From IMG/VR virus record IMGVR_UViG_3300035180_001452, positions 32,001 to 96,000 of that record: a stretch of 64,000 nt of DNA; one strand, written 5' to 3'. Both the position numbers and the translations under genes were made by a program. Shown here in pieces: positions 5,896 through 64,000 of this stretch (position 1 is the first letter of the stretch; each line of letters opens with the position of its first letter). The notes below the pieces were generated by a model. It was not told where the DNA came from and did not search any database. It saw nothing but the letters and a program-made list of their open reading frames with translations. The DNA is from a virus.

Positions 5896-5911
5896 ACGAA
5901 CCCTTTTCTGA

Positions 5912-7654
5912 TTAAGCGACATTTCTCTTTAGTCTCCTAACTAATATCCTATCCAGCTTTTTTGTACTTACTGCACCGTCTGATATTTTAACATGAACAT
6001 GGCTCTTCACTGGAGATATAACCGCCTCCTGTCTATGCTCATGTACTATATCAGAATCCATAGAGGGTTCTGATACTATATTTATTTCGTTGCTTACTTC
6101 TGGCATAGGAGTATGTAATGCAGAATCTTTCTTACCATATACTTCAGGAGCCTTTACGGCTGTACTATCAAAAGCAATTCTGTTGGAATACTCCTTGCCG
6201 GAAAGCATACTTTGTATCTGTCGTTTATCTAGTTTTACTAGATTCTTTTTTTCTTTAGGACTAAGAAATACCCTTTGTTCTGTTGCACTGGAAGAACTTT
6301 TTATGGGGGAGGCACTAAGTTCTTGTGATACCTCTTTTAAGTTAATCCCTCTTTTTCTTAGCTTGGAACTTAGTCTATCAGTTCTTAGCCAGTTAGATAT
6401 CTCTCTTTTACTAACGGCATACTTATCAAATACTCTACGCATTATACTATCTAAATTTTCATAGGCAGTATTTTTATATGTAGAGGCTAACTTCATTTCT
6501 GCCAGTACGGCTGATTTTATTGGATTAGATATTCTTCTCTTAACTGTTTTGCTTACAATTCTTTCTGCATATTCAGCGGCTCTTCTAACATCAACAACTG
6601 ATGAATCTTTATATGTTCCTAGTCTATTTGCCTGCTCTCTTGACGCTGGTCCTTTCTCTCCAACCCCAGCATGGCCATATGCATGTCTACTAGATCTGTA
6701 ACTTGCATCTACAACATTTGCTATTTGGTTAAGCACTAGTCTAGTAGCACTAAAAGCCATTATATCAATAATAGGACCGCCTATTTCTTGAAATATAGGA
6801 GTTAGTTTTCGTACAGTATCTGCTCCTAACTTATTCTCTAGCTTTCCTATTGGTATAGCTTTATTGCCAATACCCTCCAATATCTTAATATCTTTTTCCC
6901 ACTCAGCAGCCTTATTAGTAAACCATGAGCTATCTAGGCTATTGCCAATCCATTTATATAAATCCGATCCTCTGCTGACAATTCCACCAGCAATATTTCT
7001 AGCAGTAGGACTTGATAGAGCAGCTCTACCAAATGCTCTAGATAAAGGATAAGATACTATCTCATGAAGAGCAAATGGTAACGATCTTATAATTCCTCCA
7101 GGACTTCTATTATCCTCTTTATAGTCTATATAAGCTCCTATAGACCTTCCTATTCCATAGTATAAACCAAATACAGGATAAGCATTAGCTGTAGTAAATA
7201 CAGATGCTAAAGATCTAGCTATAAATGGATCTCCTACAGACTGACTAAATGCAATTCCAGCTGATCCAAGTATAGGTATGCCTAATCCAATCGCTCCACC
7301 TATATTAGCATAGCTAGCAGCCTTATGAGGATCTACTCTTGACTGCTCTTCATAGGTTCCTAACCACTCTGACATGGTTCTAGAAGCAGGACCTTTTTCT
7401 CCTACACCCCAGTGACCATAGGCTAGCCTATGAGAATACTGTAAGGATGAATCTATACTAGGAAGTTCTCTTGGTACAAACTCTAATAAATATCTTAGAG
7501 GAGTCATACGTACAGGAGACTCCATACGGAAGTTACCAAGATGTGTTCCTACTATTTTCCTGGCAGACTCTGGATATGGTTGAGTATTCCAACCAATGTC
7601 TGATTTATTTATATAGGTTCCGCGTACCGACCGGTCATCAAATACACTAGCCAT
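5912..7654 (-). CDS. Hypothetical virion-associated protein with internal repeat
   Basis: 580 aa. Two copies of AYGHxGVGEKGPASR..LGTY...S.VD...AA.YA and Gly/Ala-rich hydrophobic segments. Confidence 0.6.
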   Translation of the reverse strand: MASVFDDRSVRGTYINKSDIGWNTQPYPESARKIVGTHLGNFRMESPVRMTPLRYLLEFVPRELPSIDSSLQYSHRLAYGHWGVGEKGPASRTMSEWLGTYEEQSRVDPHKAASYANIGGAIGLGIPILGSAGIAFSQSVGDPFIARSLASVFTTANAYPVFGLYYGIGRSIGAYIDYKEDNRSPGGIIRSLPFALHEIVSYPLSRAFGRAALSSPTARNIAGGIVSRGSDLYKWIGNSLDSSWFTNKAAEWEKDIKILEGIGNKAIPIGKLENKLGADTVRKLTPIFQEIGGPIIDIMAFSATRLVLNQIANVVDASYRSSRHAYGHAGVGEKGPASREQANRLGTYKDSSVVDVRRAAEYAERIVSKTVKRRISNPIKSAVLAEMKLASTYKNTAYENLDSIMRRVFDKYAVSKREISNWLRTDRLSSKLRKRGINLKEVSQELSASPIKSSSSATEQRVFLSPKEKKNLVKLDKRQIQSMLSGKEYSNRIAFDSTAVKAPEVYGKKDSALHTPMPEVSNEINIVSEPSMDSDIVHEHRQEAVISPVKSHVHVKISDGAVSTKKLDRILVRRLKRNVA

Positions 7655-50722: not shown

Positions 50723-51466
50723 TTATTTTACAGTAGGAACTCCACCACTATCTTTAATACAAACACCTGTAGTTATAATTCCTTGAGTATTATTAACAGT
50801 TCCACCTGTAGTTGTAGCAGCTGTAGCCGTATCTACACTAGATGCGGTAGCCGCATCTATAGCGGTATTGGGTGTTTCTATAGTAATCAGACTCTTAATA
50901 TATTCTTGAGCGCATGATAGAGAGCACAGAACCCTTCTCTTCCTCTTATACCCAATAGTTACAGCTTCTTCTATCTTCTTACCACACTGCGCGCACGTGA
51001 TACCAGCAGCTATATCCTTCGCGAGCTTAGCTGACTTTACTTCATCAATCAGTTTAGTACAGCTCCACTTATTATCATGAGCCTTCTTAAGCCATGTTAT
51101 TGGATCTTCTACACTAGCACAAATTCTGTAGTGAGTCCATGTTACCGGTAGATGTCTGATAGCCTCATCCTCAAATGTCTTGGCAACCCATCTATACTGA
51201 AGGAATGTACTTCTCGCTTCTCCAGTCTTAGTAAGGAACTGATCTATGATATCTGACTTACCCTTCTCTTCCTTTTCTTTATTATGTAGATCGGTTATTA
51301 AAGAAGCAATGTCACCTCTAAGCCAGTTATCTTCTACCTCAGCTTTTAGAATAGCAGAATACTGGTTGACATACTCTTCAAGTTCCATTATGCTTCCTTT
51401 CTTGTTTATACTATCCACAGACTCAGTATTTATTCTAAATATAGTGTGTATATAAGATGCGTCCAT
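50723..51466 (-). CDS. LmbU-like HTH DNA-binding protein with C-terminal zinc ribbon
   Basis: NWLRGD, TFLQYRWVAKTF, TWTHYR, WLKKAHDNKWS; CAQC...CSLSC. Alternative start MELEE at 51388. Confidence 0.55.
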   Translation of the reverse strand: MDASYIHTIFRINTESVDSINKKGSIMELEEYVNQYSAILKAEVEDNWLRGDIASLITDLHNKEKEEKGKSDIIDQFLTKTGEARSTFLQYRWVAKTFEDEAIRHLPVTWTHYRICASVEDPITWLKKAHDNKWSCTKLIDEVKSAKLAKDIAAGITCAQCGKKIEEAVTIGYKRKRRVLCSLSCAQEYIKSLITIETPNTAIDAATASSVDTATAATTTGGTVNNTQGIITTGVCIKDSGGVPTVK

Positions 51467-51495
51467 TTGAACTTCCTTATACTTCCATATTTATC

Positions 51496-52122
51496 CTAAA
51501 TACGGGACACTTCTATCTTATTATGGCACAAACTACGTATGTCCCACAAGGCTGATTTAGGAGTCACCCAGCATATGTCTCTTCGGAGTTTAATCCCCGG
51601 TACACTCTCAGCAGCTTCATAATGTTTATTATTGATACTACCTAGTTTTAAGAATTCCTTTACAGGTAACCATCCAAGGAATTTTATGTCTTGGAATGTG
51701 TACCCTTGAATTATTACCGGGTGAGTTTCTGATGGCGATGGGGTCGCATTCATACTAGGTACGGTGGTCTTACAGACTGTAGGTATTACCTGTACAGCTA
51801 CAACTACATCAGAGCTACTAGCATTATCTAAACAATCCTTAGGTATCCAAATGGATTTAGGTAGCGCTACTGATTTAACTATAAGTTTTCTACCGTCAGG
51901 TAGAACCCCGTCCGGTTTAGACCTATCTCCTCTCTTCCCATACAAGTTCCAATCCATAGTAGCGTTTAAATACTTTTGGCAAGCATACTCTGCATAAACC
52001 CCCATTACATGCTTTATTAAAGGTGGCCATCCTCTAGATATGGTCTGGTTAGTTTTTGGTTTATTCCTTTTAATCGCCATATCTACACAGAATTTAATAT
52101 CTTCTTCTGTAAACTCAATCAT
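51496..52122 (-). CDS. PD-(D/E)XK nuclease-fold protein
   Basis: GVYAEYAC...PDGVL.DG...IVKS. Confidence 0.45.
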   Translation of the reverse strand: MIEFTEEDIKFCVDMAIKRNKPKTNQTISRGWPPLIKHVMGVYAEYACQKYLNATMDWNLYGKRGDRSKPDGVLPDGRKLIVKSVALPKSIWIPKDCLDNASSSDVVVAVQVIPTVCKTTVPSMNATPSPSETHPVIIQGYTFQDIKFLGWLPVKEFLKLGSINNKHYEAAESVPGIKLRRDICWVTPKSALWDIRSLCHNKIEVSRI

Positions 52123-52288
52123 TAATATATCCTTGTTTATTACACGGACTAGGTCTTACTAAACTCTACATTATTATGGCACACTCAGATTATCTTGTAT
52201 AGCAGGGTTTAGCATAAATACGGACATAGTTTATCAGGCCAGAAACCAATCCTGCCTCTAGGTACTATATTACCTAGATGATCTAGGG

Positions 52289-52329
52289 GGTGTGTCTCAA
52301 ATTTACCCACGGTAAGTTTGAGATGTGCC
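52289..52329 (+). promoter_or_regulatory. 19-bp leader hairpin at start of the plus-strand array
   Basis: GGTGTGTCTCAAATTTACC-CAC-GGTAAGTTTGAGATGTGCC, fully paired only if five G-U pairs are allowed. Confidence 0.7.
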
Positions 52330-52377
52330 AGCGAGTGCTCTGGGGACATGAGCCCCTGCACTCAGAAAGGTAAGAGA

Positions 52378-52725
52378 ATGTCCAAGGTTAAGGAGTGGTT
52401 GGAGAAGCTTGCGGGGCTTTTGGCCCCAAAGGCGAGGATCGTGGAGAGCACGGCTACCGGTGACGATCAGACCGGCATCGTCACTGTCGCCCTTATCCAG
52501 GGCGATGCGCGCATCGAGATGGCGGTCAGCTATGACCGCCAGAATTTCCGGGTTGGCTTCTCCGTCAAGAAGGCGGAGGGCTACCCGGTCTCTTCTGGAA
52601 GCGTTACCTTCGAGAACAACTGGTACGAGGTTCATCTCGAGAATATTCTCGAGATGAAGTTCAAAAGTGCATCGATGATCCCGTGGGGGATCATCGGGGC
52701 TGAGATCGAGAAGGCTATCAGGTAG
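52378..52725 (+). CDS. Cassette protein, family 1
   Basis: ATG after repeat B and SD; C-terminal SMIPWGIIGAEIEKAIR. Confidence 0.8.
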   Translation: MSKVKEWLEKLAGLLAPKARIVESTATGDDQTGIVTVALIQGDARIEMAVSYDRQNFRVGFSVKKAEGYPVSSGSVTFENNWYEVHLENILEMKFKSASMIPWGIIGAEIEKAIR

Positions 52726-52820
52726 CCTTCTCGATCACCAAGGAGGAGGGGCTAACGCCCCTCCTTCTTGGGCTGAGTGCTTAGGGGACATGAGCCCCTG
52801 CACTCGGAAAGGAAAAGGAA

Positions 52821-53186
52821 ATGGAGTTGAAGATTGAGAAGTTTCTGCGCCTGGTGACGGGGCTTCTCCTGCCCCCCGACACGGTCTGTGTCGAGGAGAC
52901 CGTGCTCGGTACTGACGAGTCGGGCATCGTGGGGTACATGTTCCAGATTGGCGAGGTCAACCTGGACGTTGCACTCACGAACAACCGGGACGAGTGGACG
53001 TTCACCCTTGATACTATCAAGGGAGGTCGGAAGATCCTGATGGTCACCGTCTTGTACCAGCACGCGTGGTACAGCATGTCTATCCGGGCCAAGGACGTGG
53101 AGACGACCCGGAAGTTCCGGGATGCCTCGAGCATTCCCTGGGACGAGGTCGGGAAGGAGATCGGCAAGGCCCTCTCTGACATCTAG
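52821..53186 (+). CDS. Cassette protein, family 1
   Basis: RKFRDASSIPWDEVGKEIGKAL; paralog of 55329. Confidence 0.82.
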   Translation: MELKIEKFLRLVTGLLLPPDTVCVEETVLGTDESGIVGYMFQIGEVNLDVALTNNRDEWTFTLDTIKGGRKILMVTVLYQHAWYSMSIRAKDVETTRKFRDASSIPWDEVGKEIGKALSDI

Positions 53187-53279
53187 AGAGGGCCTGGGCC
53201 TAAGGAGGAGGGGCTAACGCCCCTCCTTCTTGGGCTGAGCCAGAAGAATGTACCTCTGGCTTGGGAGGAGGTGAATAAA

Positions 53280-53417
53280 ATGGTGGGCCTCGTTGTGGTG
53301 GTAGTAGTTGTGGCGGGCCTGGTTAAGCTCCTCGAGTCGGTTCGTGAGGAGCAAAACCGTGCCCTCACCTTCTCCTTTATGGAGATCATGAAGGAGGAGA
53401 AGGAGGAGGAGAAGTAA
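53280..53417 (+). CDS. 45-aa membrane peptide (not in ORF track)
   Basis: SD GGAGGTGA; MVGLVVVVVVVAGLVKLL...MKEEKEEEK. Confidence 0.75.
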   Translation: MVGLVVVVVVVAGLVKLLESVREEQNRALTFSFMEIMKEEKEEEK

Positions 53418-53514
53418 TTCTCCTCCTCCAGCCTAAGGAGGAGGGGCTAACGCCCCTCCTTCTTGGGCTGAGTGTTTAGAGGACATGAGCCTCTGCACTC
53501 AGAAAGGTAGGAAG

Positions 53515-53982
53515 ATGAAGCCTAGCAAGAAGATCCTTGCTGGGTTCCAGGTCCTCTTTGGATCTGGGATCCAGCAGGGGGTGACCCCAGAAGTTTGGGT
53601 CACTACCAGCAAGCGGACTTTTAAGATGGTCCGCTGTGACATCGGAACCCCCGTTGTGGGGGTCATCACCCGCAGCGGCTGGCAGGTTGCCGCTATCCAG
53701 TCCGAGGAGAAGTATGTCTGGCTCGCTCCTGGCGAGAGCGAGCCAAGGATCGGGTCTCTCGTCAAGCTCCTTCAGGAGTTCTTGAAGGATAAGGGTGATG
53801 GCGTGTTCGACATCATCCTTGCCTTCAAGAAGGAGGTCGAGGAGACCAAGGCTAGCAAGAAGGATGATGAGACCTTTATCGACCTGCTTTATAAGCAGGC
53901 CGAGATGGTCTCCTCAACCATCTCGAGCACGTACTCCAGCGTGGTGGAGTACGTTACCAACATCCCCAAGATTTTCTCGTAG
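53515..53982 (+). CDS. Cassette protein, family 2
   Basis: LAGFQVLFG...GW...VWLAP.ESEP; paralog of 56946 and 58831. Confidence 0.82.
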   Translation: MKPSKKILAGFQVLFGSGIQQGVTPEVWVTTSKRTFKMVRCDIGTPVVGVITRSGWQVAAIQSEEKYVWLAPGESEPRIGSLVKLLQEFLKDKGDGVFDIILAFKKEVEETKASKKDDETFIDLLYKQAEMVSSTISSTYSSVVEYVTNIPKIFS

Positions 53983-54067
53983 GGGATGTTGGTAGCCTGA
54001 GGAGGAGGGGCTAACGCCCCTCCTTCTTAGGCTGAGTGTTTAGAGGACACGAGCCTCTGCACTCAGA

Positions 54068-54205
54068 AAGGCAGTGCAATGACTTGACTGCCTTGGATCG
54101 CTGATCGCTAGGCTAGTTAATGCTTTAGGGGCAGTATTAACTAGCTAGAGTGCAGCCTTGGTATTAAAGTGTGGCTGCAATAGGGCTAACGCCCTTCCTT
54201 TTTAT
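54068..54205 (+). ncRNA. Element C copy 1: ~140-nt structured non-coding unit (ncRNA or promoter module)
   Basis: Stems AAGGCAGT/ACTGCCTT, CTAGTTAATGCT/AGTATTAACTAG, TGCAGCC/GGCTGCA and AGGGC-TAAC-GCCCT, then TCCTTTTT. Confidence 0.55.
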
Positions 54206-54255
54206 GCTGAGTGCTTAGAGGACATGAGCCTCTGCACTCAGAAAGGAAGAAGAAG

Positions 54256-54666
54256 ATGAAGTTGTTGATCCGGCTGTTCACGATGTATCTTGACTTCCTC
54301 CTTAAGAATTCAATGGAGGTAGTTAAGATGGAGGTAGTGGGCGGTAGCTTTGACATCGATTCCGTTCAGGATGGTGTCAGGCTCTCTGTTTCTGCAAAGC
54401 TTACCCAGGAAGGTATGCTTTTGCAGTATGTGTTGGGTTTTAAGGAAAGATACCTAGTAACGACACGTTTGGCAGGTAATAGTGGATATGGACATAAGTC
54501 AATGGTGGCAAGGAAGCCACATGAGAAGAGAAAGATCCGTCTGGAGAGTCGGCTCCTCCAGACGGAGGATGAGGTCGTTCGGTTCCTCCAGCCAGGGGGA
54601 ACCGATGAGGTTTCCGTTGAGGATGCTATGAAGATTCATAGCATCCTTATCTGGCTGGATGAGTAG
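54256..54666 (+). CDS. Cassette protein, family 3
   Basis: MKLLIRLF...LQTEDEVVRFLQP; paralog of 56422. Confidence 0.82.
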   Translation: MKLLIRLFTMYLDFLLKNSMEVVKMEVVGGSFDIDSVQDGVRLSVSAKLTQEGMLLQYVLGFKERYLVTTRLAGNSGYGHKSMVARKPHEKRKIRLESRLLQTEDEVVRFLQPGGTDEVSVEDAMKIHSILIWLDE

Positions 54667-54763
54667 TTTCGACCAGCCAGCTTGAGAGGGAGGGGCTAAC
54701 GCCCCTCCTTCTTGGGCTGAGCACTCTGGGGACATGAGCCCCTGTGCTTGAAAGGAGACAGCG

Positions 54764-55183
54764 ATGCTATATGCTATCGCTGAGGCGTACCGAAGCATCT
54801 TCGGTGCGCCCGTCCACGAGACAATCGTGGACGGTATCCTCCACCAGGCTTTTCTGGTGGGGGATGGTGTGGTGGAGCTTTCGTTCCACCATACCATGGA
54901 CAAGATGATGATGTCTATGGTCTTGTCCATTGTTCCGGCCTCGGTCGAGGTCGGATATGATGTTATCCTCAAGGACAACATCGTGACTTTCCGTCTTGCC
55001 CTTTCCAAGGGCGAGCTTGACTCTGAGGAAGTTGCGCTTAGCGCGCAGCTTCCTTGTGGGGTGCACCCCATCAAGGTGTTCCTTCCTGGGAAGGAGGGAC
55101 CTGTTCCCTCCTTCCTCAACCTCAGTGAGGAGCAGCACATGCTCCTCAAGGAGTGGACTAAGAAGTTGATGGGGAGCATGTAG
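54764..55183 (+). CDS. Cassette protein, singleton
   Basis: SD AAGGAG after a B variant. Confidence 0.78.
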   Translation: MLYAIAEAYRSIFGAPVHETIVDGILHQAFLVGDGVVELSFHHTMDKMMMSMVLSIVPASVEVGYDVILKDNIVTFRLALSKGELDSEEVALSAQLPCGVHPIKVFLPGKEGPVPSFLNLSEEQHMLLKEWTKKLMGSM

Positions 55184-55328
55184 TGGTTTTGTATTACCGG
55201 GAAATGAGCTCACATCCCGGTAATACAGACGTAGCTAACTACTAGACTAAGGAGGAGGGGCTAACGCCCCTCCTTCTTGGTCTGAGTGCTTAGGGGACAT
55301 GAGCCCCTGCACTTGGAAGGAGAAGGAA

Positions 55329-55649
55329 ATGGAGTTGAATATCGAGCAGATGATGTACAATCTGATTGCGGCCCTGCTTCCCGGAAACATTTCCGGGATC
55401 GATCGGACGCTCCAGATCAATGTCAAGACCATTGATTTGGCGCTCGGAGAGTTCGGTCTCGAGGGGATGCTTACTCTGGAAATCGTTGAGAATGACAACA
55501 AGCTCGTTAAGGTTGTTATTCGATACGAGGAGGGTGAGTACACTCTTGGCATCCGGACCAAGGAGATGCATACGATCCGGAAGTTCCGGGATATCTCGGT
55601 GATCCCCTGGAACACCATCACGGATGAGATCGAGGAGGCTATCAAGTAG
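55329..55649 (+). CDS. Cassette protein, family 1
   Basis: RKFRDISVIPWNTITDEIEEAIK. Confidence 0.82.
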   Translation: MELNIEQMMYNLIAALLPGNISGIDRTLQINVKTIDLALGEFGLEGMLTLEIVENDNKLVKVVIRYEEGEYTLGIRTKEMHTIRKFRDISVIPWNTITDEIEEAIK

Positions 55650-55741
55650 CCTTCTCGACCCCTAAGGAGGAGGGGCTAACGCCCCTCCTTCTTGGGCTGA
55701 GCCAGAAGAATGTATCTCTGGCTGGAGAGGAGGTGAATAAG

Positions 55742-55900
55742 ATGGATGTTCTCGCTGCTCTTCTGTCAGTCGTGGTTTTCGTAGCAGTAATGCTACGAGT
55801 ACTCGGCTGTGCTCAGGAGGAGCATAAGCGGGTGATTACCAGCTCCTTCATCGAGGTTTGCAAGGCGATGAGGGAGGCGGAGGAGGCGGAGGAGAAATAA
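55742..55900 (+). CDS. 52-aa membrane peptide (not in ORF track), paralog of 53280
   Basis: SD GGAGGTGA; MDVLAALLSVVVFVAVML...EAEEK. Confidence 0.75.
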   Translation: MDVLAALLSVVVFVAVMLRVLGCAQEEHKRVITSSFIEVCKAMREAEEAEEK

Positions 55901-55991
55901 TCTCCTCTAGCCTGAGGAGGAGGGGCTAACGCCCCTCCTTCTTGGGCTGAGCCAGAAGAATGTACCTCTGGCTGGAGAGGAGGTGAATAAG

Positions 55992-56147
55992 ATGACCGTC
56001 AAGATTTTCGATGGCTTTAATGCCGTGGTCGATGATGATGGCACCATCATCGGGTTCTATACGGACCCGGGTGTTCTCATCGACCTTTGCCTTGACGAGG
56101 CTAATAATATTATTGGCTTCGTCAAGGCCAAGGAGGAGGAGAAGTAA
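55992..56147 (+). CDS. 51-aa acidic peptide (not in ORF track)
   Basis: SD GGAGGTGA; MTVKIFDGFNAVVDDDG...KAKEEEK. Confidence 0.72.
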   Translation: MTVKIFDGFNAVVDDDGTIIGFYTDPGVLIDLCLDEANNIIGFVKAKEEEK

Positions 56148-56233
56148 TTCTCCTCCTCCAGCCTGAGGAGGAGGGGCTAACGCCCCTCCTTCTTGGGCTG
56201 AGTGTTTAGAGGACACGAGCCTCTGCACTCAGA

Positions 56234-56371
56234 AAGGCAGTGCAATGACTTGACTGCCTTGGATTGCTAGTTGCCAAGCTAGTTAATGCTAAGGGGCTAG
56301 TATTAACTAGCTTGAGTGCAGCCCTAGTACTAACGTGTGGCTGCAATAGGGCTAACGCCCTTCCTTTTTAT
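56234..56371 (+). ncRNA. Element C copy 2
   Basis: Same four stems; outer pair changed to CAAGCTAG/CTAGCTTG. Confidence 0.55.
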
Positions 56372-56421
56372 ACTGAGTGCTTAGAGGACATGAGCCTCTG
56401 CACTCAGAAAGGAAGAAGAAG

Positions 56422-56847
56422 ATGAAGCTGTTGGTCCGGCTGTTCGTGATGTACTTGGATTTTCTCCGCAGCGGCTTCGCGGAGGTTACCAAGCTTGAAG
56501 CTGGTGAGGAGGGCTTCAAGCTCGAGGCGGTGGATGCTTACGGAGGGATTGTTCTTACGACCTCTTTTGAGGTCGTTCCGACAGGGGTTGTCCTTCAGTA
56601 TGTTCTTCTTTACGAATCGCGCAACTATCTCATAACAACGCGATTCGTTGGGAATGACGGATGGTCGTTCAAGTCAATGACGGCAACAAAGTCAAATCCG
56701 TCTGAGACTAGAAAGATCCGTCTAGAGACTCGCACCCTCCAGACGGAGGATGAGGTCGTTCGGTTCCTTCAACCAGAAGGGACCGATGAGGTTTCTGTCG
56801 AGGATGCTATGAAGATTCATAGCATTCTCGCGTGGCTGGTCGAGTAG
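56422..56847 (+). CDS. Cassette protein, family 3
   Basis: Paralog of 54256. Confidence 0.82.
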   Translation: MKLLVRLFVMYLDFLRSGFAEVTKLEAGEEGFKLEAVDAYGGIVLTTSFEVVPTGVVLQYVLLYESRNYLITTRFVGNDGWSFKSMTATKSNPSETRKIRLETRTLQTEDEVVRFLQPEGTDEVSVEDAMKIHSILAWLVE

Positions 56848-56945
56848 TTTCGACCAGCCAGCCTAAGGAGGAGGGGCTAACGCCCCTCCTTCTTGGGCTG
56901 AGTGTTTAGAGGACATGAGCCTCTGCACTCAGAAAGGGGAGGCAT

Positions 56946-57398
56946 ATGACGCCTCGCGAGAAGTACCTCGCGGGGTTCCAGGTCCTCTTTGGACCTGGAA
57001 TTCCACGGGGTGTCACCCCCGAGGTCCGCATTGCCGTTGGTAAGCGGACCAGCACGATGGTGCGATGCACCATCGGGACCCCCATTGTGGGGGTCATCGT
57101 CCGCGAGGGCTGGATGGTCGCAAAGATCCAGCCTGAGGAGAAGTATGTCTGGCTCGCTCCTAATGAGAGCGAGCCAAGCGTTGGTTCTCTCACTCAGCTC
57201 CTTCAGGGGTTCCTGAAGGACAAGGGGTGCGTGTTCGATCTCCTTCTTGAGTTCAAGAAGGAGATCGAGGAGTCCAAGGAGGATGTCACCTTCCTTGACT
57301 TGATGTACAAGCAGCTCGAGATGGTTGGTGATACCATCTCGAGCACGTACTCCACTATGCTGGAGTACGTTACCAACATCCCCAAGATTTTCTCGTAG
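56946..57398 (+). CDS. Cassette protein, family 2
   Basis: Paralog of 53515; SD GGGGAGG. Confidence 0.82.
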   Translation: MTPREKYLAGFQVLFGPGIPRGVTPEVRIAVGKRTSTMVRCTIGTPIVGVIVREGWMVAKIQPEEKYVWLAPNESEPSVGSLTQLLQGFLKDKGCVFDLLLEFKKEIEESKEDVTFLDLMYKQLEMVGDTISSTYSTMLEYVTNIPKIFS

Positions 57399-57524
57399 GG
57401 GATGTTGGTAGCCTGAGGAGGAGGGGCTAACGCCCCTCCTTCTTGGGCTGAGGAGATATTAGTATCTCCTCTTATTACTTTGGTATTACCGGGAATGTGA
57501 GACACTCTCCGGTAATAAGAAAGG

Positions 57525-57660
57525 AGTGGTAGAATGACTTGACTACCTAGTGACATCCGTAGCTAGGCTAGTTAATGCTAGGGGGCTAGTATTAACTAGC
57601 CAGAATGCAGCCCTAGTATTAACGTGTGGCTGCAATAGGGCTAACGCCCTTCCTTTTTAT
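57525..57660 (+). ncRNA. Element C copy 3 (first stem diverged)
   Basis: ATGACTTGACT...CTAGTTAATGCTA/TAGTATTAACTAG...GTGTGGCTGCAATAGGGCTAACGCCCTTCCTTTTT. Confidence 0.5.
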
Positions 57661-57710
57661 ACTGAGTGTTTAGAGGACATGAGCCTCTGCACTCAGAAAG
57701 GCAGGAGAAG

Positions 57711-58079
57711 ATGAAGTTTGACGTTGTGGAAATGCTGGCATGGTTTGCCAGCATGTTGGGCGTATCCGCTGATACGTCCAACATCGAGACCGGGATCTCT
57801 TCTCGGTCTAAGTATGCCTCCATCGATAAGACTATCGATGGGATTGCCTTCTCAATGAAGGCATCAGTGGCTCTGGACGGAGAGTGGTGTATTCTCGGCA
57901 TGGTGGCCGAGAACAAGGAGGGTAGCTGTGCTACCCTCTCGGTCTGTGTCGACCGTGACGTTACGGTCGGGATGGAGGATGGCAATGGTGTTTACACCGT
58001 TGCCATCTACGAGTCGGCTGCTGATGTTCCGTGGGAGGATATCAGCGACAAGGCTAACAAGGTCATCTCTAGCCTGTAG
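57711..58079 (+). CDS. Cassette protein, family 1-related
   Basis: MKFDVVEMLAWFA...ADVPWEDISDKANKVI. Confidence 0.8.
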   Translation: MKFDVVEMLAWFASMLGVSADTSNIETGISSRSKYASIDKTIDGIAFSMKASVALDGEWCILGMVAENKEGSCATLSVCVDRDVTVGMEDGNGVYTVAIYESAADVPWEDISDKANKVISSL

Positions 58080-58176
58080 AGGTGGCTTTGGCCTGAGGAG
58101 GAGGGGCTAACGCCCCTCCTTCTTAGGCTGAGTGTTTAGAGGACATGAGCCTCTGCACTCAGAAAGGCAGGAGAAG

Positions 58177-58560
58177 ATGATGTTTGATGTTGTGGAGATG
58201 CTGGCATGGTTTGCTGGCATTCTCCTGCCTGACGCGTACTACCGCGCGTCAGGCGTGGCAACCGGTAAGTCTGATGATTCTTGCTACGCTGAGACTGGTT
58301 ATCTCAGCAGCAAGAATAGCGGACTTGCGATCGGTGTGAAGTGCACCTCCTCGTTCGACAATAGCTGGTGGATTCTCGGCTTGGTAGCCGAGAATCTGGA
58401 TGGGGAGTTCTTCACGCTGTCCCTGTCATTTGACAGGGGGACTGTCACGTACTCGGTGGAGGATAAGGGGCTTTATTCCTCCTATGAGTATGACAACATC
58501 ACTGATGTTCAGTGGGATGTTGTCATTAATGAGACCATTAAGGCCCTCTCTAGGATGTAG
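58177..58560 (+). CDS. Cassette protein, family 1-related
   Basis: MMFDVVEMLAWFA...TDVQWDVVINETIKAL; tandem paralog of 57711. Confidence 0.8.
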   Translation: MMFDVVEMLAWFAGILLPDAYYRASGVATGKSDDSCYAETGYLSSKNSGLAIGVKCTSSFDNSWWILGLVAENLDGEFFTLSLSFDRGTVTYSVEDKGLYSSYEYDNITDVQWDVVINETIKALSRM

Positions 58561-58644
58561 AGAGGGCCTGAGCCTGAGGAGGAGGGGCTAACGCCCCTCC
58601 TTCTTGGGCTGAGTGTTTAGAGGACATGAGCCTCTGCACTCAAG

Positions 58645-58782
58645 GAGGCAGTGCAATGACTTGACTGCCTTGGATTGCTAGTTGTTAAGCTAGTTAATAC
58701 TTTAGGGGCAGTATTAACTAGCTAGAATGCGGTTCTAGTGTTAAAGTGTGGCTGCAATAGGGCTAACGCCCTTCCTTTTTAT
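58645..58782 (+). ncRNA. Element C copy 4
   Basis: Same architecture; third stem TGCGGTT/GGCTGCA retained through G-U pairs. Confidence 0.5.
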
Positions 58783-58830
58783 ACTGAGCATTCTGGGGAC
58801 ATGAGCCCCTGTGCTTGAAAGGGGAGGCAT

Positions 58831-59223
58831 ATGACGCCTCGCGAGAAGTATCTTGCGGGATTCTGGGCGTTGTTTGAGCCCGTAATTCCCGCAGCCCTCC
58901 GGACGGTAGTCCGGAGGACCGTCCGGCTTAGTAAAAGCCGTCAAACGTTTGAGACTGCTCTCGTAGTAGTCTCAATCGAAGTCGGTGGGCGAACCCTTAG
59001 GATGGTTCGACAGCCGATCAAGGACTCCCAAACGGGAGTCCTTGCGAGCAGTGGCTGGAAGATCGCTTGGGTTTTCCAGCCAGATCCAGAGAATGGAACG
59101 TATGTTCCATTTCCCGAGGGCCGGTGCGTTTGGCTGGCCCCGGGATCCGACCAGCCCAAGATCGGGTTGGTCGGGGACCTTCTCCGGGAGGCGTACGGAC
59201 TCCCGGAGAGGATCAACCGGTAG
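58831..59223 (+). CDS. Cassette protein, family 2 (divergent)
   Basis: MTPREKYLAGF...SGWKIA...VWLAPGSDQPKIG. Confidence 0.8.
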   Translation: MTPREKYLAGFWALFEPVIPAALRTVVRRTVRLSKSRQTFETALVVVSIEVGGRTLRMVRQPIKDSQTGVLASSGWKIAWVFQPDPENGTYVPFPEGRCVWLAPGSDQPKIGLVGDLLREAYGLPERINR

Positions 59224-59349
59224 CTTTGTATAAGGAGGAGAAGGCTAGTATTTTCTCCTCCTTATACTACGACTGGTGATTTTTTTACCGGGAGGTGTGT
59301 TCCGTCAGCTTATGCGTAAGTATAGGCTCGGATCACATCTCCCGGTAGA

Positions 59350-59491
59350 AAGGCAAAAGTAAAAATGACCTGACTACCTATTGGTAGCTGGCGCTAGATT
59401 AGTTAATACTTTAGGGGTAGTATTAACTATCTAGTGTATAGCTCTAATATTAAGGTGTGGCTGCAATAGGGCTAACGCCCTTCCTTTTTAT
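59350..59491 (+). ncRNA. Element C copy 5 (most diverged)
   Basis: CTAGATTAGTTAATACT/AGTATTAACTATCTAG; identical 3' end. Confidence 0.5.
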
Positions 59492-59540
59492 ATTGAGTGC
59501 TTAGAGGACATGAGCCTCTGCACTCAGAAAGGAGATGTAG

Positions 59541-59945
59541 ATGATTGCGGGTGTCTTGGTCGGGCTCATCGAGCAGCTGCTGCTCGGTGACTTCAGCATC
59601 TTAGGGCGGTATGTGCTTGGTAACCCTAAGATGCACGAGTGCTGTCACAAGACATTGGTTGTTGATGGTGCCGCTGTGTTGGTCACCGTTGCCGTGTCCG
59701 GTTTTGGTCACGGTATCGTGACCGTCTCCTCTAGCTCCTCTAGCGGTACCTATGGTGCTCGGTCTGTGGAGGTAGTGGGCATCATGGGACTCCCGGATCA
59801 TACCTGGGCCGTCAACGGGCATACCGTTGATGGTGGGAGGCTGATCTCAGTGGAGGAGGTCGTTGGAAAGGTTGGTGTTGGTGGAAGCTTCGCGTGGAAG
59901 GGCGTATGCAAGGAGGTGGTGGACCTCTACCTTAAGTTGAGGTAG
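59541..59945 (+). CDS. Cassette protein, singleton (Val/Gly-rich)
   Basis: SD AAGGAG after repeat B; ends in a stop-codon hairpin. Confidence 0.75.
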   Translation: MIAGVLVGLIEQLLLGDFSILGRYVLGNPKMHECCHKTLVVDGAAVLVTVAVSGFGHGIVTVSSSSSSGTYGARSVEVVGIMGLPDHTWAVNGHTVDGGRLISVEEVVGKVGVGGSFAWKGVCKEVVDLYLKLR

Positions 59946-60578
59946 AGGTCCAGCCTGAGGAGGAGGGGCTAATGCCCCTCCTTCTTGGGCTGTCTGAGGG
60001 CTAAAAGTTTGTTACTACTCTCTGACAAATGTCTACATGTTTAGGGGCTAACGCCCCTCTTTTTAGTGCTGGGGTATAGTACTATACCCTAGGAGGATGT
60101 TACATGGTACGTCCAGATGGCATCCGATTCGGGGCCTTCGGCCCCTGTTGCTATGCCGGGCATACCATGACGGCAATCTTCTTTACTACAAAGACTACCG
60201 GTAGGGTGCAATCCTGCCTGTACTTTTAGTAATAGCCTATACTCAAGTAAACAGTACCGGGAAGTGTGCACACTCTCCGGTATATCAGTCATAGCTACGC
60301 TATGGTATCAGTAGCAGCTACACTAGAGCTTTAGCCGGTAGGTTTCAGTCGCAGCTAGGCTATGATCTTTTGGTGAAAGTGGCCACCATAGGGCAAAAAG
60401 TGCCACATTTTTGGGCCGAAAATGGACAAAAATGGGCCAAAACATGGATGGGTACTTTTGGGGCTATGGGAGCCACTTATCCAATAGCCTATAGCTACTT
60501 TACCTGGGTAAACAATACTCACCCTGCGGTAAGGGTGTTTACATATAGTGCACAGTTGGTAGACTACCAGAGAGGAGG

Positions 60579-61016
60579 ATGGATATGGTAGTCAGAGTCC
60601 TCTTGGGGAGGACGACAAACCCCAGGAGGGGGCTGGATACTACGGTCAAGTCAGGAAACGGACTTGGCCGTACGTTCGCTCCCTCCTGGGAGCTGGTCCT
60701 GGGATTCAAGAACTACCAGGACCAGCAGGCGGGCAGGGTAGCTCGCTTCCCAGGGTATAATCCTATATCCTGGGAAGAATACTCCCTTTTCTACCGGGAG
60801 ATGTTGAACAGTCTCCCGGTAGACGGTAAGGGGATCCCGTACGCTGTGCGGGATCTTTACAACTTCGGAAAGGAGCAGCCCGGTAACGTGCTGCTTCTAC
60901 GTTGCTACTGCTCGGTAGCAACCCCGTGCTGTCACAACCAGCTAATCATTGATTGGCTGGTTGGGAGGTGGCCGAAGGCCTTCGGCCTCCTCCAGGATAG
61001 CCTCCCCGGTATCTAG
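60579..61016 (+). CDS. DUF488-like protein
   Basis: FAPSWELV...ISWEEY..FY..ML...LLRCYC.....CH; SD GAGGAGG (start possibly 60585). Confidence 0.65.
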   Translation: MDMVVRVLLGRTTNPRRGLDTTVKSGNGLGRTFAPSWELVLGFKNYQDQQAGRVARFPGYNPISWEEYSLFYREMLNSLPVDGKGIPYAVRDLYNFGKEQPGNVLLLRCYCSVATPCCHNQLIIDWLVGRWPKAFGLLQDSLPGI

Positions 61017-61166
61017 TATATCGGGGAGAAAGCCAAGCAGGACGTGGTGCGTTCGATACTACGTCCTGCTTGGCACTACTCAAGTATACCATCGGAATAC
61101 CTTTTGCTCTGATCCTGATGGTGAAACTAGCCTTGCACATGAGAGCGAGGCAGAGAGGAGAGAGAA

Positions 61167-61847
61167 GTGAATAGTATGGATCGGGAAGAGGTGTGGCGTA
61201 CCTGCCCACCGTGGCTAAGAAACGCTGCCCTGGCTATAGCCAGGGGATATGACCACGGATGGTCGCGATCGACAGCCGTTCCGTCAGCTCCTTACTTTTG
61301 GGAGTATGACGACCCATTTCCTTCTCTCAGTGAGATTGAAGAAGGGACACCAGAGGGACCCCTTGGCAAGGGGATCACACAGCCTGATATCTCGTTCGAA
61401 GATGGGCGATACTTTGCCCGACATAGAACGGGAACTGGTAGGGTCTTTATAGAAGTTGCGGTAGACCCTACGAATGATTGTGACCTTTCTTATACGGTCA
61501 TTGTCTCCAGACCCAGTGGAGAAATCGCCTCTGGTACCAAGGTTGGTAATGAGGTATACGTGACTGCAGATCGGGCAGTTTGGGGGACTCGCCATGAGGA
61601 CGCTTGGGAGAAGGCGTGGAAAGCTCTTGGGATTCCTGCTCCCAAGTTCCCCAGCAAGGTTCTTAGGACCATTGAGAAGAACCTTGTTGTAGATGGTAAG
61701 GGACTGAAAGTCGATCCCTTGCGCTGTAGGGTTACGGTACTCCCTACAGCAGTGCTCTCAGTAGAGGACCTTCTAAGCCTTAGGAGGGCTGAGAAGGTCG
61801 AGATAGTTGATATTGTCGGTCAGAGCTATGACCTCACTATCAGCTGA
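61167..61847 (+). CDS. Hypothetical protein, tandem paralog 1
   Basis: Clearly similar to 61897-62568 throughout (APYFWEYDD..PSL.EIEEGTPEGPLGKGIT). Confidence 0.82.
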   Translation: MNSMDREEVWRTCPPWLRNAALAIARGYDHGWSRSTAVPSAPYFWEYDDPFPSLSEIEEGTPEGPLGKGITQPDISFEDGRYFARHRTGTGRVFIEVAVDPTNDCDLSYTVIVSRPSGEIASGTKVGNEVYVTADRAVWGTRHEDAWEKAWKALGIPAPKFPSKVLRTIEKNLVVDGKGLKVDPLRCRVTVLPTAVLSVEDLLSLRRAEKVEIVDIVGQSYDLTIS

Positions 61848-61896
61848 AGTCGTAACAGCCTTGCACATGAGAGCGAGGCAGAGAGGAGAAAACAGC

Positions 61897-62568
61897 ATGA
61901 GCCGGGAAGAGGTGTGGCAATCGATGCCGGTGTCTTTGCGGAATACTGCGCTGGGAATCGCCCGTGCCTATGGGCACGGGTGGGCGTGGTCAACAGTAGT
62001 GCCAGCTGCTCCCTACTTTTGGGAGTACGATGACGTTGTTCCTTCCCTCGAGGAAATCGAGGAAGGAACACCGGAGGGTCCCCTCGGGAAGGGGATCACT
62101 GGGCCAGATATATCGTTCAGGGATGGACGATACTTCGTCTTCCATAAGACTGGGACCGGTAGAGTCACTATCGAGGTCTCAGTGGATCCAGTATCAGATC
62201 CGGGGACAACCTACGAGGTAGTAGTATCCCGCCCCAATGGGGATAGCGCGGTCGGTATTCGGGATGGGAAGAGAACCGAGGATAACGTACGGACGTTCGC
62301 GGATTGGTCCATCTGGGGAATTCGCCACGAGAACGCCTGGAAGAAGGCGTGGGTGGCTCTCGGGATTCCTGCTCCCGAGTTCCCTGGAAAGCTCCTTGAG
62401 AAGGAGCTTGTTGTGAGTGGAAACCTGGAGGGTGATCCTCTGTACTCCAAGGTTAAGATCCTCCCCAAATCGGTTCTTTCTGTGGAGGATCTTTTGCGGC
62501 TCAGAAGGGCTGCATCGGTAGAGATAGTTGATGAGGTAGGGCAGGTCTACCCCCTGATCATCGGGTAG
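61897..62568 (+). CDS. Hypothetical protein, tandem paralog 2
   Basis: ATG behind the same leader and GAGGAG SD. Confidence 0.82.
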   Translation: MSREEVWQSMPVSLRNTALGIARAYGHGWAWSTVVPAAPYFWEYDDVVPSLEEIEEGTPEGPLGKGITGPDISFRDGRYFVFHKTGTGRVTIEVSVDPVSDPGTTYEVVVSRPNGDSAVGIRDGKRTEDNVRTFADWSIWGIRHENAWKKAWVALGIPAPEFPGKLLEKELVVSGNLEGDPLYSKVKILPKSVLSVEDLLRLRRAASVEIVDEVGQVYPLIIG

Positions 62569-62670
62569 AACCGCCACAGAGGAGAGGGAGATCACACCCT
62601 CCCTCTCTTCTGAATACAGGATCTAGGTGTGAACAACACCCCCCGCGCCTAGCGGGGAAAGGAGAGAACA

Positions 62671-63384
62671 GTGGGATTTCTGAAGATCGCTGAGCTGCCC
62701 GAATGGGCAGTATCAGCAGTACGATCCATGGTGGATCGGAGCATTGACCGAAGGGTTTTTGTACTTTCCGGGGATGAGATCCTCGGAAAGGTCGAGGAAG
62801 ACGAATATGCAGTACCAGGCAGTCCGAGTCTGTCTGGTACGATCTCCCTGATGACTGGGGAGGTCTTGGAGTTTAACAACTCCCCGGTGTATCTAGCCAC
62901 GCAACTGGAGCGTGGCTCCCGTGGTATTAATCCTGTCTGCCGGGCAATCGTGCATTGCCCGGTGTCCGAAACCCCTGCGCGGTTTGCTATCGTGCAGGGG
63001 CGCTTTGGAGCGTTCCCCGCTACCATGGGGATACGTTCCAAAAGCGTTGTAGAGTTGATCGAGGCGAAACCCGCCTCGATCCCAAAGCTCGCTCAGGCTC
63101 GAGGTCTTGATGTTAAGGAACTCGAGGAGCGAGTTGCATTCCTCCGCTCCTACGCTGTTAAGAGCGGAGATTTTTGGAACTGGAGAGGCGTCCGCCTCTC
63201 TAACAGTTCCTCTTCTATTCTTGCACAGCTCGGAAATGCTGTGCAGGGAATCTCCATTGTGTCGAGGGATGGGACTGAGTACCCATTCCTCGCCCCGGTC
63301 AACGCCACATCCGTCACCGCCTCCCCGTTCGAGGCGGTTACTCCGCTTGCAGTTTCCGTTACAGTTCCGGAGGTTATCGGATAA
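62671..63384 (+). CDS. Hypothetical protein
   Basis: SD AAGGAG preceded by CCCCGC/GCGGGG hairpin. Confidence 0.75.
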   Translation: MGFLKIAELPEWAVSAVRSMVDRSIDRRVFVLSGDEILGKVEEDEYAVPGSPSLSGTISLMTGEVLEFNNSPVYLATQLERGSRGINPVCRAIVHCPVSETPARFAIVQGRFGAFPATMGIRSKSVVELIEAKPASIPKLAQARGLDVKELEERVAFLRSYAVKSGDFWNWRGVRLSNSSSSILAQLGNAVQGISIVSRDGTEYPFLAPVNATSVTASPFEAVTPLAVSVTVPEVIG

Positions 63385-63412
63385 CCTCCAGTACAGCTAG
63401 AGGGAGGTGCTC

Positions 63413-64000
63413 ATGGATGAGCATCTCCCTCCATTCTCACTACGTTGTACGTTGAAGGAGAATGGGATGAAGGCTGTCTTTGTACAGCAGCCTCGGCTGC
63501 TGGAAAGGGTTGGAAACGTGTTCACCGTGCGGGTGGACACGGATATGACGGGGACCGTTCTCCACCAGGTGTCGCATCCGGAAGAGCAGCCTGTTTTCAG
63601 GCTGCTTGGCAGCCGCATTAAAGTACCGGATCTTCGGGCATTCTACATGCCCGAGCGGACACTTTGGAACGCGAATGGTGTTAGAGGCACTATTCGCGTG
63701 GTAGACTTACCGGAACCGCTTCGCATCATCGATTCGGTGATAGGCGATGCGAAGAATGGTAAGAACTCTGCCTTTAGGGCAGACTCTATGCTCCCGTACA
63801 TCTCTAGGATGTTGCAAGTCGAGGTGTCCCATACCCAGGTAAATGCGCCTGGGATTATGGGCTTCGCGATGGGAGCTGACGGGCAGCTCTCTAGCCGGGA
63901 AGTTGCAATATCCTCCAGAATGGCGGTACGGCTTCTTAGGGTCATTTCCACCCTGCACTGGGACTGGGTGGAATGGCTGGTAAGCCGTACCCCGGAACCT
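63413..64000 (+). CDS. Hypothetical protein (partial, runs off window end)
   Basis: SD GGAGGTG, MDEHLPPFSLRC..., open to the end of the window. Confidence 0.7.
   Translation, partial: MDEHLPPFSLRCTLKENGMKAVFVQQPRLLERVGNVFTVRVDTDMTGTVLHQVSHPEEQPVFRLLGSRIKVPDLRAFYMPERTLWNANGVRGTIRVVDLPEPLRIIDSVIGDAKNGKNSAFRADSMLPYISRMLQVEVSHTQVNAPGIMGFAMGADGQLSSREVAISSRMAVRLLRVISTLHWDWVEWLVSRTPEP

Follow-up and report, generated by a model that had tools for sequence, protein, structure and literature searches.

UAAC-loop hairpins between the small genes of a phage array: probable mRNA-level elements of a PeSL-like cassette system

We analyzed a 64,000-nucleotide stretch of viral DNA, bases 32001 to 96000 of the linear 122,380-bp IMG/VR contig IMGVR_UViG_3300035180_001452 (G000; rated 79% complete), and refer to this whole stretch as the window. 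Its plus strand, in what is a jumbo-type phage, carries an 8-kb array of small genes separated by a repeated hairpin with a UAAC loop, here called Repeat A. Repeat A is probably an mRNA-level terminator, attenuator, or stabilizer hairpin within a PeSL-like intergenic cassette that is kept uniform by recombination. The kind of system is known from PeSL cassettes; what is new is an RNA grammar of three hairpins that has an invariant UAAC loop but no sigma-70 promoter, set in a GC-rich island beside a putative minimal polymerase. Negative results given below for G000 and for a distant relative, the 117,564-bp IMG/VR contig G001, rest on incomplete contigs (79% and 65%, respectively).

To delineate Repeat A, the window was searched for its 12-nt core, GGGCTAACGCCC, with at most one mismatch. 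The search returned 20 matches, all on the plus strand and between 52749 and 60056, whereas 100 shuffled sequences averaged 0.19 matches, with at most 2 in any of them, and none reached 20. Nineteen cores are exact, and the copy at 59966 has a TAAT loop; the preliminary description of this DNA, which had reported a 20-copy hairpin repeat whose core is unchanged except for one TAAT loop at the last full copy, was thus correct. In the whole contig, the exact cores are just the 19 of the array, with none on the reverse strand and none for the backwards control, and all cUAACg tetraloop hairpins with at least 6 pairs fall inside the array (14 listed). The core-to-core spacing varies from 79 to 709 nt, with genes between. 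Fourteen copies are of a long form with the consensus AGCCURAGGAGGAGGGGC-UAAC-GCCCCUCCUUCUURGGCU; 12 of them have 18 to 21 pairs and the other two 15 or 16. Folding calculations at 37°C give them −31.8 to −36.6 kcal/mol; at 65°C, a value of −20.1 kcal/mol is still predicted for the consensus. The six short copies (AGGGC/GCCCT in five and AGGGGC/GCCCCT in one) have 5 or 6 pairs followed by UCCUUUUUAU or CUUUUUAG, and their stems are calculated at about −4 to −6 kcal/mol at 65°C. A terminator scan for T-runs was positive for all six short copies and for none of the 14 long ones, in agreement with the earlier remark that a U-tract stands behind short but not full copies. The long copies have a purine 5′ arm that pulls the pyrimidine tail CUCCUUCUU into the stem, and the tail CUCCUUCUUGGGCU, with five U's in its first nine bases, is wholly paired.

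The placement of Repeat A relative to the genes is strict. The array genes are small (45 to 155 amino acids), co-oriented, and form diverged paralog families, and all 20 copies of Repeat A are oriented with them. In 13 of the 14 long copies, the stem starts 6 to 12 nt past a stop codon; the remaining one is shifted by another hairpin. Wherever a cassette follows, the next ATG lies 57 to 61 nt past the core. Each module runs from Repeat A through a 5′ untranslated region (5′UTR) hairpin and a Shine-Dalgarno (SD) sequence (AGAAAGG) to the ATG. The 5′UTR hairpin, present in 15 plus-strand copies between 52330 and 59538, has the form CUGAGUGY-UU-AGRGG-ACAUGAG-CCYCU-GCACUCAG and lies directly after Repeat A and before the SD; three modules of the window carry a different hairpin (GAGCCAGA..UCUGGCU) instead. 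Around its invariant ACAUGAG loop, the 5′UTR hairpin has genuinely compensatory substitutions, which involve 3 pairs and 18 cells, a level that none of 500 shuffles reached, and its variants track the family of the downstream gene. At the upstream border, the stop codon of most plus-strand genes lies within a gene-specific hairpin of 9 to 12 bp, in which the final codons pair with the bases just after the gene (for example, 56833–56860, 53158–53186, and 59917–59951); the relative phage has the same arrangement (L021, 3004–3030). A full module thus comprises three abutting hairpins, and the one around the copy at 56859–56900 folds with −82.8 kcal/mol and a z score of −9.6. A sigma-70 scan yielded 7 sites against 5.4 expected, none of them in any module from Repeat A to the SD, and no convincing promoter was seen by eye at the array head.

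The two ends of the array reveal to which side of the gene Repeat A belongs. The first array gene (ATG at 52378) has a 5′UTR hairpin and an SD and no Repeat A upstream, and behind the last gene (59541–59945) a long copy is followed 79 nt on by a short copy with a U-run, with no cassette after either. Thus, Repeat A is a 3′-end element rather than a 5′ element. These ends also bear on the earlier proposal of a hairpin promoter, either of the type used by the N4 virion RNA polymerase or one for the phage's own minimal polymerase, with a start at GGGCUGAG just behind the hairpin. All 20 copies do share a core hairpin of 5 or 6 bp, the next purines, 13 to 15 nt downstream, are the first base of the 5′UTR hairpin, the island encodes a β′-like protein with a DCDGD motif, and the modules have no sigma-70 promoter. 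However, the hairpin is missing from an otherwise complete first cassette, and no gene stands behind the last two copies to be expressed. N4-type promoter hairpins have a stem of 5 to 7 bp and a 3-nt loop, whereas Repeat A has a 4-nt loop and, in its long form, a stem of 15 to 21 bp. Moreover, its G-U pairs would lie on the nontemplate strand, neither a T7-like polymerase, a virion RNA polymerase, nor a second DxDGD polymerase was found in the contig (79% complete), and the copies of the relative phage end in plain U-tails. We consider a promoter function very improbable.

To evaluate pairing within this phage, we aligned 22 long copies from G000 and two near relatives, which gave 15 distinct rows; 98.1% of the cells pair. 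Of the 13 distinct variants of the stem, 8 leave the affected base pair able to form and 2 offset one another; the remaining 3, found in two copies, make the outer stem shorter. A double-sided change occurs at one pair in one cell (C-G to A-U at 55244), which 72 of 500 shuffles matched; the other stem variants are one-sided transitions that survive as G-U pairs. The three stem variants cited in the preliminary description are present (53994 and 58090, CTGAGG...CTTAGGCT; 55244, AGACT...GGTCT), and pairing is indeed kept through G-U pairs, but the term compensatory changes overstated what the window holds. Non-Watson-Crick pairs are G-U in seven stem columns and A-C in none, so the plus strand folds better than the minus strand (−35.3 versus −27.6 kcal/mol, a difference of 7.7), and this G-U-only wobble pattern fits an mRNA structure. 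Once the distant relative and the short forms were added, 28 cells at 7 pairs were double-changed, compared to 10.7 ± 2.5 cells after shuffling. Neither this cell count nor the covariation score was reached by any of 500 shuffles, in an alignment that spans only about three independent lineages. Hence, of the RNA or single-stranded DNA recognition site that had been suggested, a strand-specific, sense-strand RNA hairpin stands, and the data speak neither for nor against its specific recognition.

The layout is maintained in the distant relative G001, whose β′-like protein is 45 to 47% identical to that of G000. The G001 array has seven copies of GAGGAUUGGGAGGGUC-UAAC-GACCCUCCCUUUCCUC, all on the plus strand; the array adjoins the polymerase genes on their upstream side, and no copies occur elsewhere in the contig. 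Compared to the window, the stem differs in sequence but still pairs, and it has the same loop and closing C-G pair; of the 27 copies in the two phages, 26 share this loop and closing pair. Five of the seven copies start 0 to 13 nt past a stop codon, and the two with a shorter stem follow noncoding stretches. A second hairpin, an SD, and an ATG then come after each copy, and some of the upstream genes have a stop-codon hairpin. The tails in G001 are terminator-like (UUUCCUC, UUUUCUC, UUUUCUU, and UUUUUUC). Survival of this layout across such a polymerase divergence suggests a selected regulatory design, not a mere remnant of duplication. In addition, kinship with terminators is indicated by the U-run of the short copies and of the array-end copy and by the U-rich tails of the relative.

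Two further sets of contigs revealed a mosaic of cassettes with junctions in the modules. Two near-relative contigs, L019 (3052 nt) and L018 (1656 nt), contain the same Repeat A, 5′UTR hairpins, and noncoding units as the window, yet they order the cassettes differently, have one gene that the window lacks, and lack one that the window has. By blastn, they align with the window in similarity blocks of 73 to 92% with both borders in modules. Logan contigs from two runs match the window up to 1 to 9 nt from cassette start or stop codons (departure points 52374, 53187, 54758, and 58567–58570) and then continue into other genes; Logan contigs break at repeats and do not prove single molecules, and they are used here only to document the same modules adjoining other genes. 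The pairwise identity of the hairpins is 93%, compared to 50% for coding DNA 30 to 90 nt upstream (48.5% when shuffled). Homologues of the family C proteins of the array occur in metagenomes with 67 to 70% identity in the full-length form and 34 to 35% in the short form. No counterpart of the array was detected by blastn among 50,697 phage records, IMG/VR searches with the 5′UTR hairpin pattern, a family C protein, and the 208-amino-acid neighbour returned nothing, and a profile of the two β′-like proteins retrieved from IMG/VR only the G001 locus (L021) again.

Near-identical copies beside saturated coding divergence, mosaic cassettes, and contigs that break at modules are also what a selfish or purely recombinational DNA repeat would produce, one that has no RNA function and sits harmlessly between genes. 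Nonetheless, the strict co-orientation of 20 of 20 copies, the fixed distances to stop and start codons, the G-U-only wobble, the pairing-preserving stem changes in the relative, and a long-versus-short distinction valid in both phages point to selection on the transcript, and we judge a repeat of this sort to be quite unlikely. The same mosaicism could be attributed to an integron- or REP-like single-stranded DNA site at which a site-specific recombinase or Y1 transposase cleaves and rejoins the hairpin to move cassettes, given co-oriented, seemingly promoterless cassettes that each finish with a hairpin, a content that varies between relatives, and an island whose composition differs from the rest of the genome. 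However, the tyrosine recombinase family PF00589 had no match in G000 (control, 14 of 14 genomes; G001 was not searched for it), and neither a serine recombinase nor a Y1 transposase (PF01797) was found in G000 or G001. The stems are perfect, with no bulges or extrahelical bases. The consensus R″/R′ core sites of attC are RYYYAAC/GTTRRRY, whereas the stem foot here, GCCTRAG...CTTRGGC, has no AAC/GTT core triplets. Since, in addition, the G-U pattern suits RNA more than DNA and homologous recombination over 40 to 100 identical bases suffices, such a site can be given little credence.

PeSL (promoter-early stem-loop) cassettes of T4-type phages are the closest known system (Arbiol et al. 2010, PMC2839356; Comeau et al. 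2014, PMC4122927). Both systems place a conserved composite of about 100 nt between small ORFans in a plastic region, here with modules repeated 14 to 20 times; in both, a stem-loop stands right behind the upstream gene, and the 3′ end of the module carries an SD and a start codon; and in both, the junctions of cassette insertion, deletion, or replacement lie in the modules, as in the L019/L018 mosaic and the Logan contig ends. The array module differs in having a second RNA hairpin in place of a sigma-70 promoter and an AT-rich UP region, in its far longer stem (15 to 21 bp) with an invariant UAAC loop, and in the third, gene-specific hairpin around the stop codon. Furthermore, the phage that carries it is not T4-type (its capsid resembles the 0305phi8-36 group), and the island lies 13 to 15 GC points above the genome. 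Homology-driven exchange of PeSL cassettes has been shown experimentally (PMC2839356), and recombination would likewise account for the uniformity of the Repeat A copies.

Repeat A resembles intrinsic terminators in being a GC-rich hairpin behind a stop codon on the strand of the gene, with U-runs on the short copies, the copies of the relative, and the array-end copy; the pairing of the purine 5′ arm of the long copies with their pyrimidine tail resembles an A-tract/U-tract extension. Unlike in intrinsic terminators, the tail of the long copies is fully paired, and 19 copies lie within one co-oriented array. If Repeat A acts at the mRNA level, a stable stem capped by a GNRA-like cUAACg tetraloop would form behind the terminating ribosome and would attenuate or end transcription to a degree set by the tail, in the manner of a leaky terminator. 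The upstream message would be shielded from 3′ exonucleases, and the boundary to the next hairpin-capped 5′UTR would be insulated, perhaps also marked for cutting of the RNase III type. Termination, stabilization, or processing are the activities that this arrangement suggests, and a role as a processing site is a possibility. At the same time, the near-identical 40 to 100 nt would provide homology for cassette exchange, shuffling, deletion, duplication, and homogenization of the copies.

Several results weigh against this explanation. About 19 hairpins stand in series with no sigma-70-like promoter in the modules, so if the 14 long and 5 internal short copies each halted part of the transcription, little would reach cassettes distant from a single promoter at the head, and transcription of the distal cassettes is a puzzle. 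A d'Aubenton-Carafa-type score, which is only a rough guide, gave −25.3 and −9.4 for short copies and +11.9 for the upper 8 bp of the long stem with UUCUU; a rule by which short copies terminate and long ones do not is thus unproven and not supported. Covariation of Repeat A inside this phage is weak and not significant. Neither RNase III nor a double-stranded RNA-binding domain (dsRBD) was found in G000 and G001, and no RNA run was listed among the sequencing runs that hold the stretch. Finally, the core and the 3′ arm are invariant in sequence beyond what pairing needs, which would equally suit a protein-binding site.

The last point and the puzzle of distal transcription keep alive the alternative that a dedicated protein, either an N-like antiterminator of the boxB type or a hairpin-specific endoribonuclease, binds the invariant cUAACg loop and upper stem. 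Two phages with 45 to 47% identical polymerases share this loop and its closing pair in 26 of their 27 copies, read-through of about 19 hairpins calls for antitermination or processing, and the 5′UTR hairpin begins right at the foot of Repeat A, as if a cut yielded a protected 5′ end. The antitermination box suggested in the preliminary description has also gained one link to the literature: UAAC is a UMAC loop with a GNRA-like fold, found in rRNA and in the phi21 boxB hairpin bound by N (PMC12550061). However, boxB is a hexaloop (CUAACC) on a short stem and occurs once or twice per phage near early promoters with boxA, whereas Repeat A stands after every gene and is absent from the array head. 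Neither an RNA-binding nor a nuclease domain was detected by Pfam and PHROGs in 18 island, flanking, and polymerase proteins, and no N-like protein was identified in a search made through Pfam and PHROGs only. The hairpin, moreover, occurs singly in eight unrelated viral contigs, its 12-mer recurs in bacterial tandem repeats, and the loop may simply be a favored stable one. A dedicated binder is unlikely, though it is the most probable of the alternatives. Were a binder of the phage or its host missed by the domain searches, it might act as a per-gene antiterminator in the style of boxB/N or as a Cas6-like endonuclease that turns the transcript into single-gene mRNAs, which we regard as a doubtful prospect. 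If so, the single-gene mRNAs would have a stop-codon hairpin at the 3′ end and an ACAUGAG-loop hairpin at the 5′ end, and an "operon-dicing" grammar would have persisted throughout a deep lineage of phages that have a minimal RNA polymerase of their own.

Processing by RNase III offers a related comparison. The T7 early region contains RNase III processing sites in a polycistronic mRNA, and RNase III processing of phage early mRNA is reportedly also known from SP82, in work ascribed to Panganiban and Whiteley in 1983. Like these sites, Repeat A is a double-stranded stem between small-gene cistrons that precede a phage RNA polymerase gene, and a predicted cut would leave hairpins at the new 3′ and 5′ ends. 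On the other hand, RNase III sites are bulged helices of at least 20 bp, whereas Repeat A is a perfect helix of 18 to 21 bp with a tetraloop in a phage with no RNase III gene detected. Measured against the roughly two helical turns of an RNase III site, a stem of 15 to 21 bp with abutting hairpins on both sides is borderline.

The UAAC loop is not special to these phages. The 20-mer GGAGGGGCUAACGCCCCUCC/GGAGGGGCTAACGCCCCTCC occurs exactly once in each of eight other IMG/VR contigs with unrelated flanks, where it forms a single intergenic hairpin that is terminator-like, with T-rich flanks on both sides. In bacteria, scanned with one genome per species, pairs of the 12-mer GGGCTAACGCCC spaced 40 to 70 nt apart were found at at least 120 loci, mostly in Bacteroidota and Planctomycetota, with repeat units of 22, 39, 52 to 55, 57, or 64 nt, commonly 52 to 55. 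Among the loci listed, 42 have two or more close inter-core segments, and in 37 of these the segments share 70% identity or more, which identifies them as tandem repeats of whole units and not as CRISPR repeat-spacer arrays. A T-rich tail follows 165 of 419 bacterial cores among the matches listed, and a search of Rfam with six of the loci matched no family; the bacterial repeats may represent an undescribed, widespread repeat or small-RNA array. A generally favorable loop, as indicated by the UMAC fold and the unrelated occurrences, is enough to explain the constancy of the loop. The bacterial loci also bear on the earlier idea that Repeat A mimics a CRISPR repeat, as an RNA anti-CRISPR-like decoy. 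Apart from having been suggested in the preliminary description, this idea draws on the presence of a small repeated hairpin in a phage. The irregular, gene-filled spacing of 79 to 709 nt and the tandem nature of the bacterial loci listed are at odds with it, and it is exceedingly improbable.

As a PeSL-like mRNA element, Repeat A makes the array a clear case of accessory genes handled as exchangeable units under a fixed RNA grammar. The order of that grammar (stop-codon hairpin, long UAAC hairpin, 5′UTR hairpin, and SD) is kept across a deep split, in a phage group unrelated to the T4-type. DNA runs containing the stretch are labelled as microbial mat, sediment, and hot-springs metagenomes, labels that suggest a thermal habitat. 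Lacking a recognizable sigma-70 promoter in its modules, unlike PeSL cassettes, and lying beside a putative minimal RNA polymerase, the array offers a good system for studying transcription, read-through, and mRNA stability in phages of apparently thermal habitats, and its long form (calculated −20 kcal/mol at 65°C) and short form (a possible terminator) are matched candidate parts for thermophile expression tools.

The 20 copies, all on the plus strand, lie as follows. Long copy 1 (52738–52771; 15 bp, UAAC loop) stands after the stop of the gene at 52378–52725, long copy 2 (53197–53236; 18 bp) after the gene at 52821–53186, and long copy 3 (53429–53470; 19 bp) after a mini membrane gene at 53280–53417. 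Long copy 4 (53993–54034; 19 bp), with the CTGAGG/CTTAGG variant, follows the gene at 53515–53982, and long copy 5 (54678–54719; 19 bp), whose 5′ arm is AGCTTGAGAGGG with the G-U pairs kept, follows the gene at 54256–54666. The sole double change, from C-G to A-U, belongs to long copy 6 (55243–55284; 19 bp), which begins 60 nt past the gene at 54764–55183, behind a TACCGGG hairpin. Next come long copies 7 (55661–55696; 16 bp, after the gene at 55329–55649), 8 (55908–55949; 19 bp, after a mini membrane gene at 55742–55900), and 9 (56159–56200; 19 bp, after the gene at 55992–56147). Long copy 10, the copy of the three-hairpin module described above (56859–56900; 19 bp), is preceded by the gene at 56422–56847, long copy 11 (57409–57450; 19 bp) by that at 56946–57398, long copy 12 (58087–58132; 21 bp) by that at 57711–58079, and long copy 13 (58571–58610; 18 bp) by that at 58177–58560. 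Behind the last array gene (59541–59945), long copy 14 (59952–59991; 18 bp) has the UAAU loop, and short copy 6 (60043–60068; AGGGGC-UAAC-GCCCCU and CUUUUUAG) marks the array end. Sequestration of the SD of the next gene by the 3′ arm (CCUCCUUCUU, which is anti-SD-like) was considered and dropped, as AGAAAGG does not pair with it in register.

A conserved noncoding unit of about 135 nt occurs five times in the array, and each of the internal short copies terminates one of them. Short copy 1 (54182–54205; AGGGC-UAAC-GCCCU and UCCUUUUUAU) closes the unit at 54066–54206, and short copies 2 (56348–56371), 3 (57637–57660), 4 (58759–58782), and 5 (59468–59491), all with a T-run, close those at 56232–56372, 57521–57661, 58643–58783, and 59350–59492, respectively. 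Each unit contains an SD, a two-codon ATG-ACN-TGA at its start, three conserved hairpins, and the short Repeat A with its U-run; three further copies are present in L018 and L019. By its layout, the unit looks like a small RNA or a leader-type attenuator. A search of Rfam with 51000–64000 gave eight weak microRNA or small-RNA look-alikes, all under the gathering score, and no twister, hammerhead, or other ribozyme, and no tRNA was found in the array region. A further repeated hairpin, TACCGGGA...TCCCGGTA, occurs at 55195–55228, 57487–57520, 59286–59347, 60255–60288, and 60792–60821, and CACCGGG elements like it are found in L021 at about 5170 and 5745. An ACATGAG loop similar to that of the 5′UTR hairpin sits on another stem (GCCTTGC...GCGAGGC) at 61120–61150 and 61850–61880, ahead of the paralogous genes at 61167 and 61897.

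The array head (52290–52377, plus strand) consists of a TTTACCCACGGTAA block common to the relative phage, followed by the first 5′UTR hairpin and an SD, with no Repeat A. Within it, TTTRCCCACGGTAA heads the arrays of both phages about 70 nt before the first ATG (52296–52322 in the window; L021, 2735–2760), and it is a candidate start signal for the array. In the window, an 11-bp hairpin (CUCAAAUUUAC...GUAAGUUUGAG) has this sequence in its loop region. In the relative phage, a run of repeats of about 21 nt (TTCAAATCTSRAATTCAGTACT) lies just before the array head (L021, 2539–2700), and nine GAGTTACAAGTAACTC palindromes are clustered at 98–281, 1603–1819, and 9128–9149 of L021.

The coding strand switches near 52200 of the window, where GC content rises from about 39%, the level of the genome, to 52 to 55%; this GC island spans 52200–67000 (genome positions 84200–99000). 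A paralog family with the signature EEVW..CP..NTAL.IAR.Y.HGW has members inside the island (61167 and 61897) and outside it (67041–71728), and since the family lies on both sides of the border, the island is not simply foreign DNA; GC-biased conversion through frequent recombination is one possible cause. Ten island proteins searched against Pfam and PHROGs matched no family above the curated cutoff; the sole match, weak and below the cutoff, was that of the gene at 60579, outside the array. A search of the ESM Atlas with the cassette proteins gave nothing above chance level. Downstream in the island, a 522-amino-acid β′-like protein (63407–64975) contains HQGDCDGD, with no other DxDGD motif anywhere in the contig; next to it comes a 647-amino-acid protein (64917–66860), and the pair runs past the window end (L020, 3407–6860, holds both). 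Based on this motif and the one relative examined, the pair is a putative minimal phage RNA polymerase. Neither protein belongs to a Pfam family or has a match in the 50,697 phage records, and tblastn with the β′-like protein likewise found no match among phage records.

The terminase, portal, capsid, and tail genes lie on the minus strand of the window. The capsid protein shares 31 to 36% identity with its counterparts in the 0305phi8-36 group of Bacillus jumbo phages and in Moorella phage MTATph1. A capsid search of IMG/VR found one near-identical fragment of 10.9 kb, which ends short of the array; this fragment (10,918 nt, from a different IMG/VR record) encodes the first 60 capsid residues at 98% identity, indicating that a near-identical phage is present in another data set. 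Three giant proteins of the window (minus strand, including those at 17374–24153 and 1–5922) have SLT and intein domains only: a 2259-amino-acid protein contains an intein splicing domain at residues 992 to 1305, one of at least 1974 amino acids contains an SLT lytic transglycosylase domain, and the 2604-amino-acid protein has no Pfam domain. TGCCATAAT occurs five times on the minus strand, each time before structural genes. At the divergent junction, 52201–52173 on the minus strand is a good leftward sigma-70-like promoter with an extended −10 element (TATACA, 17 nt, TG-C-CATAAT), and a second such site at 60538–60565 (TTTACA, 16 nt, TAGACT with TG) lies ahead of the operon leading to the polymerase genes.

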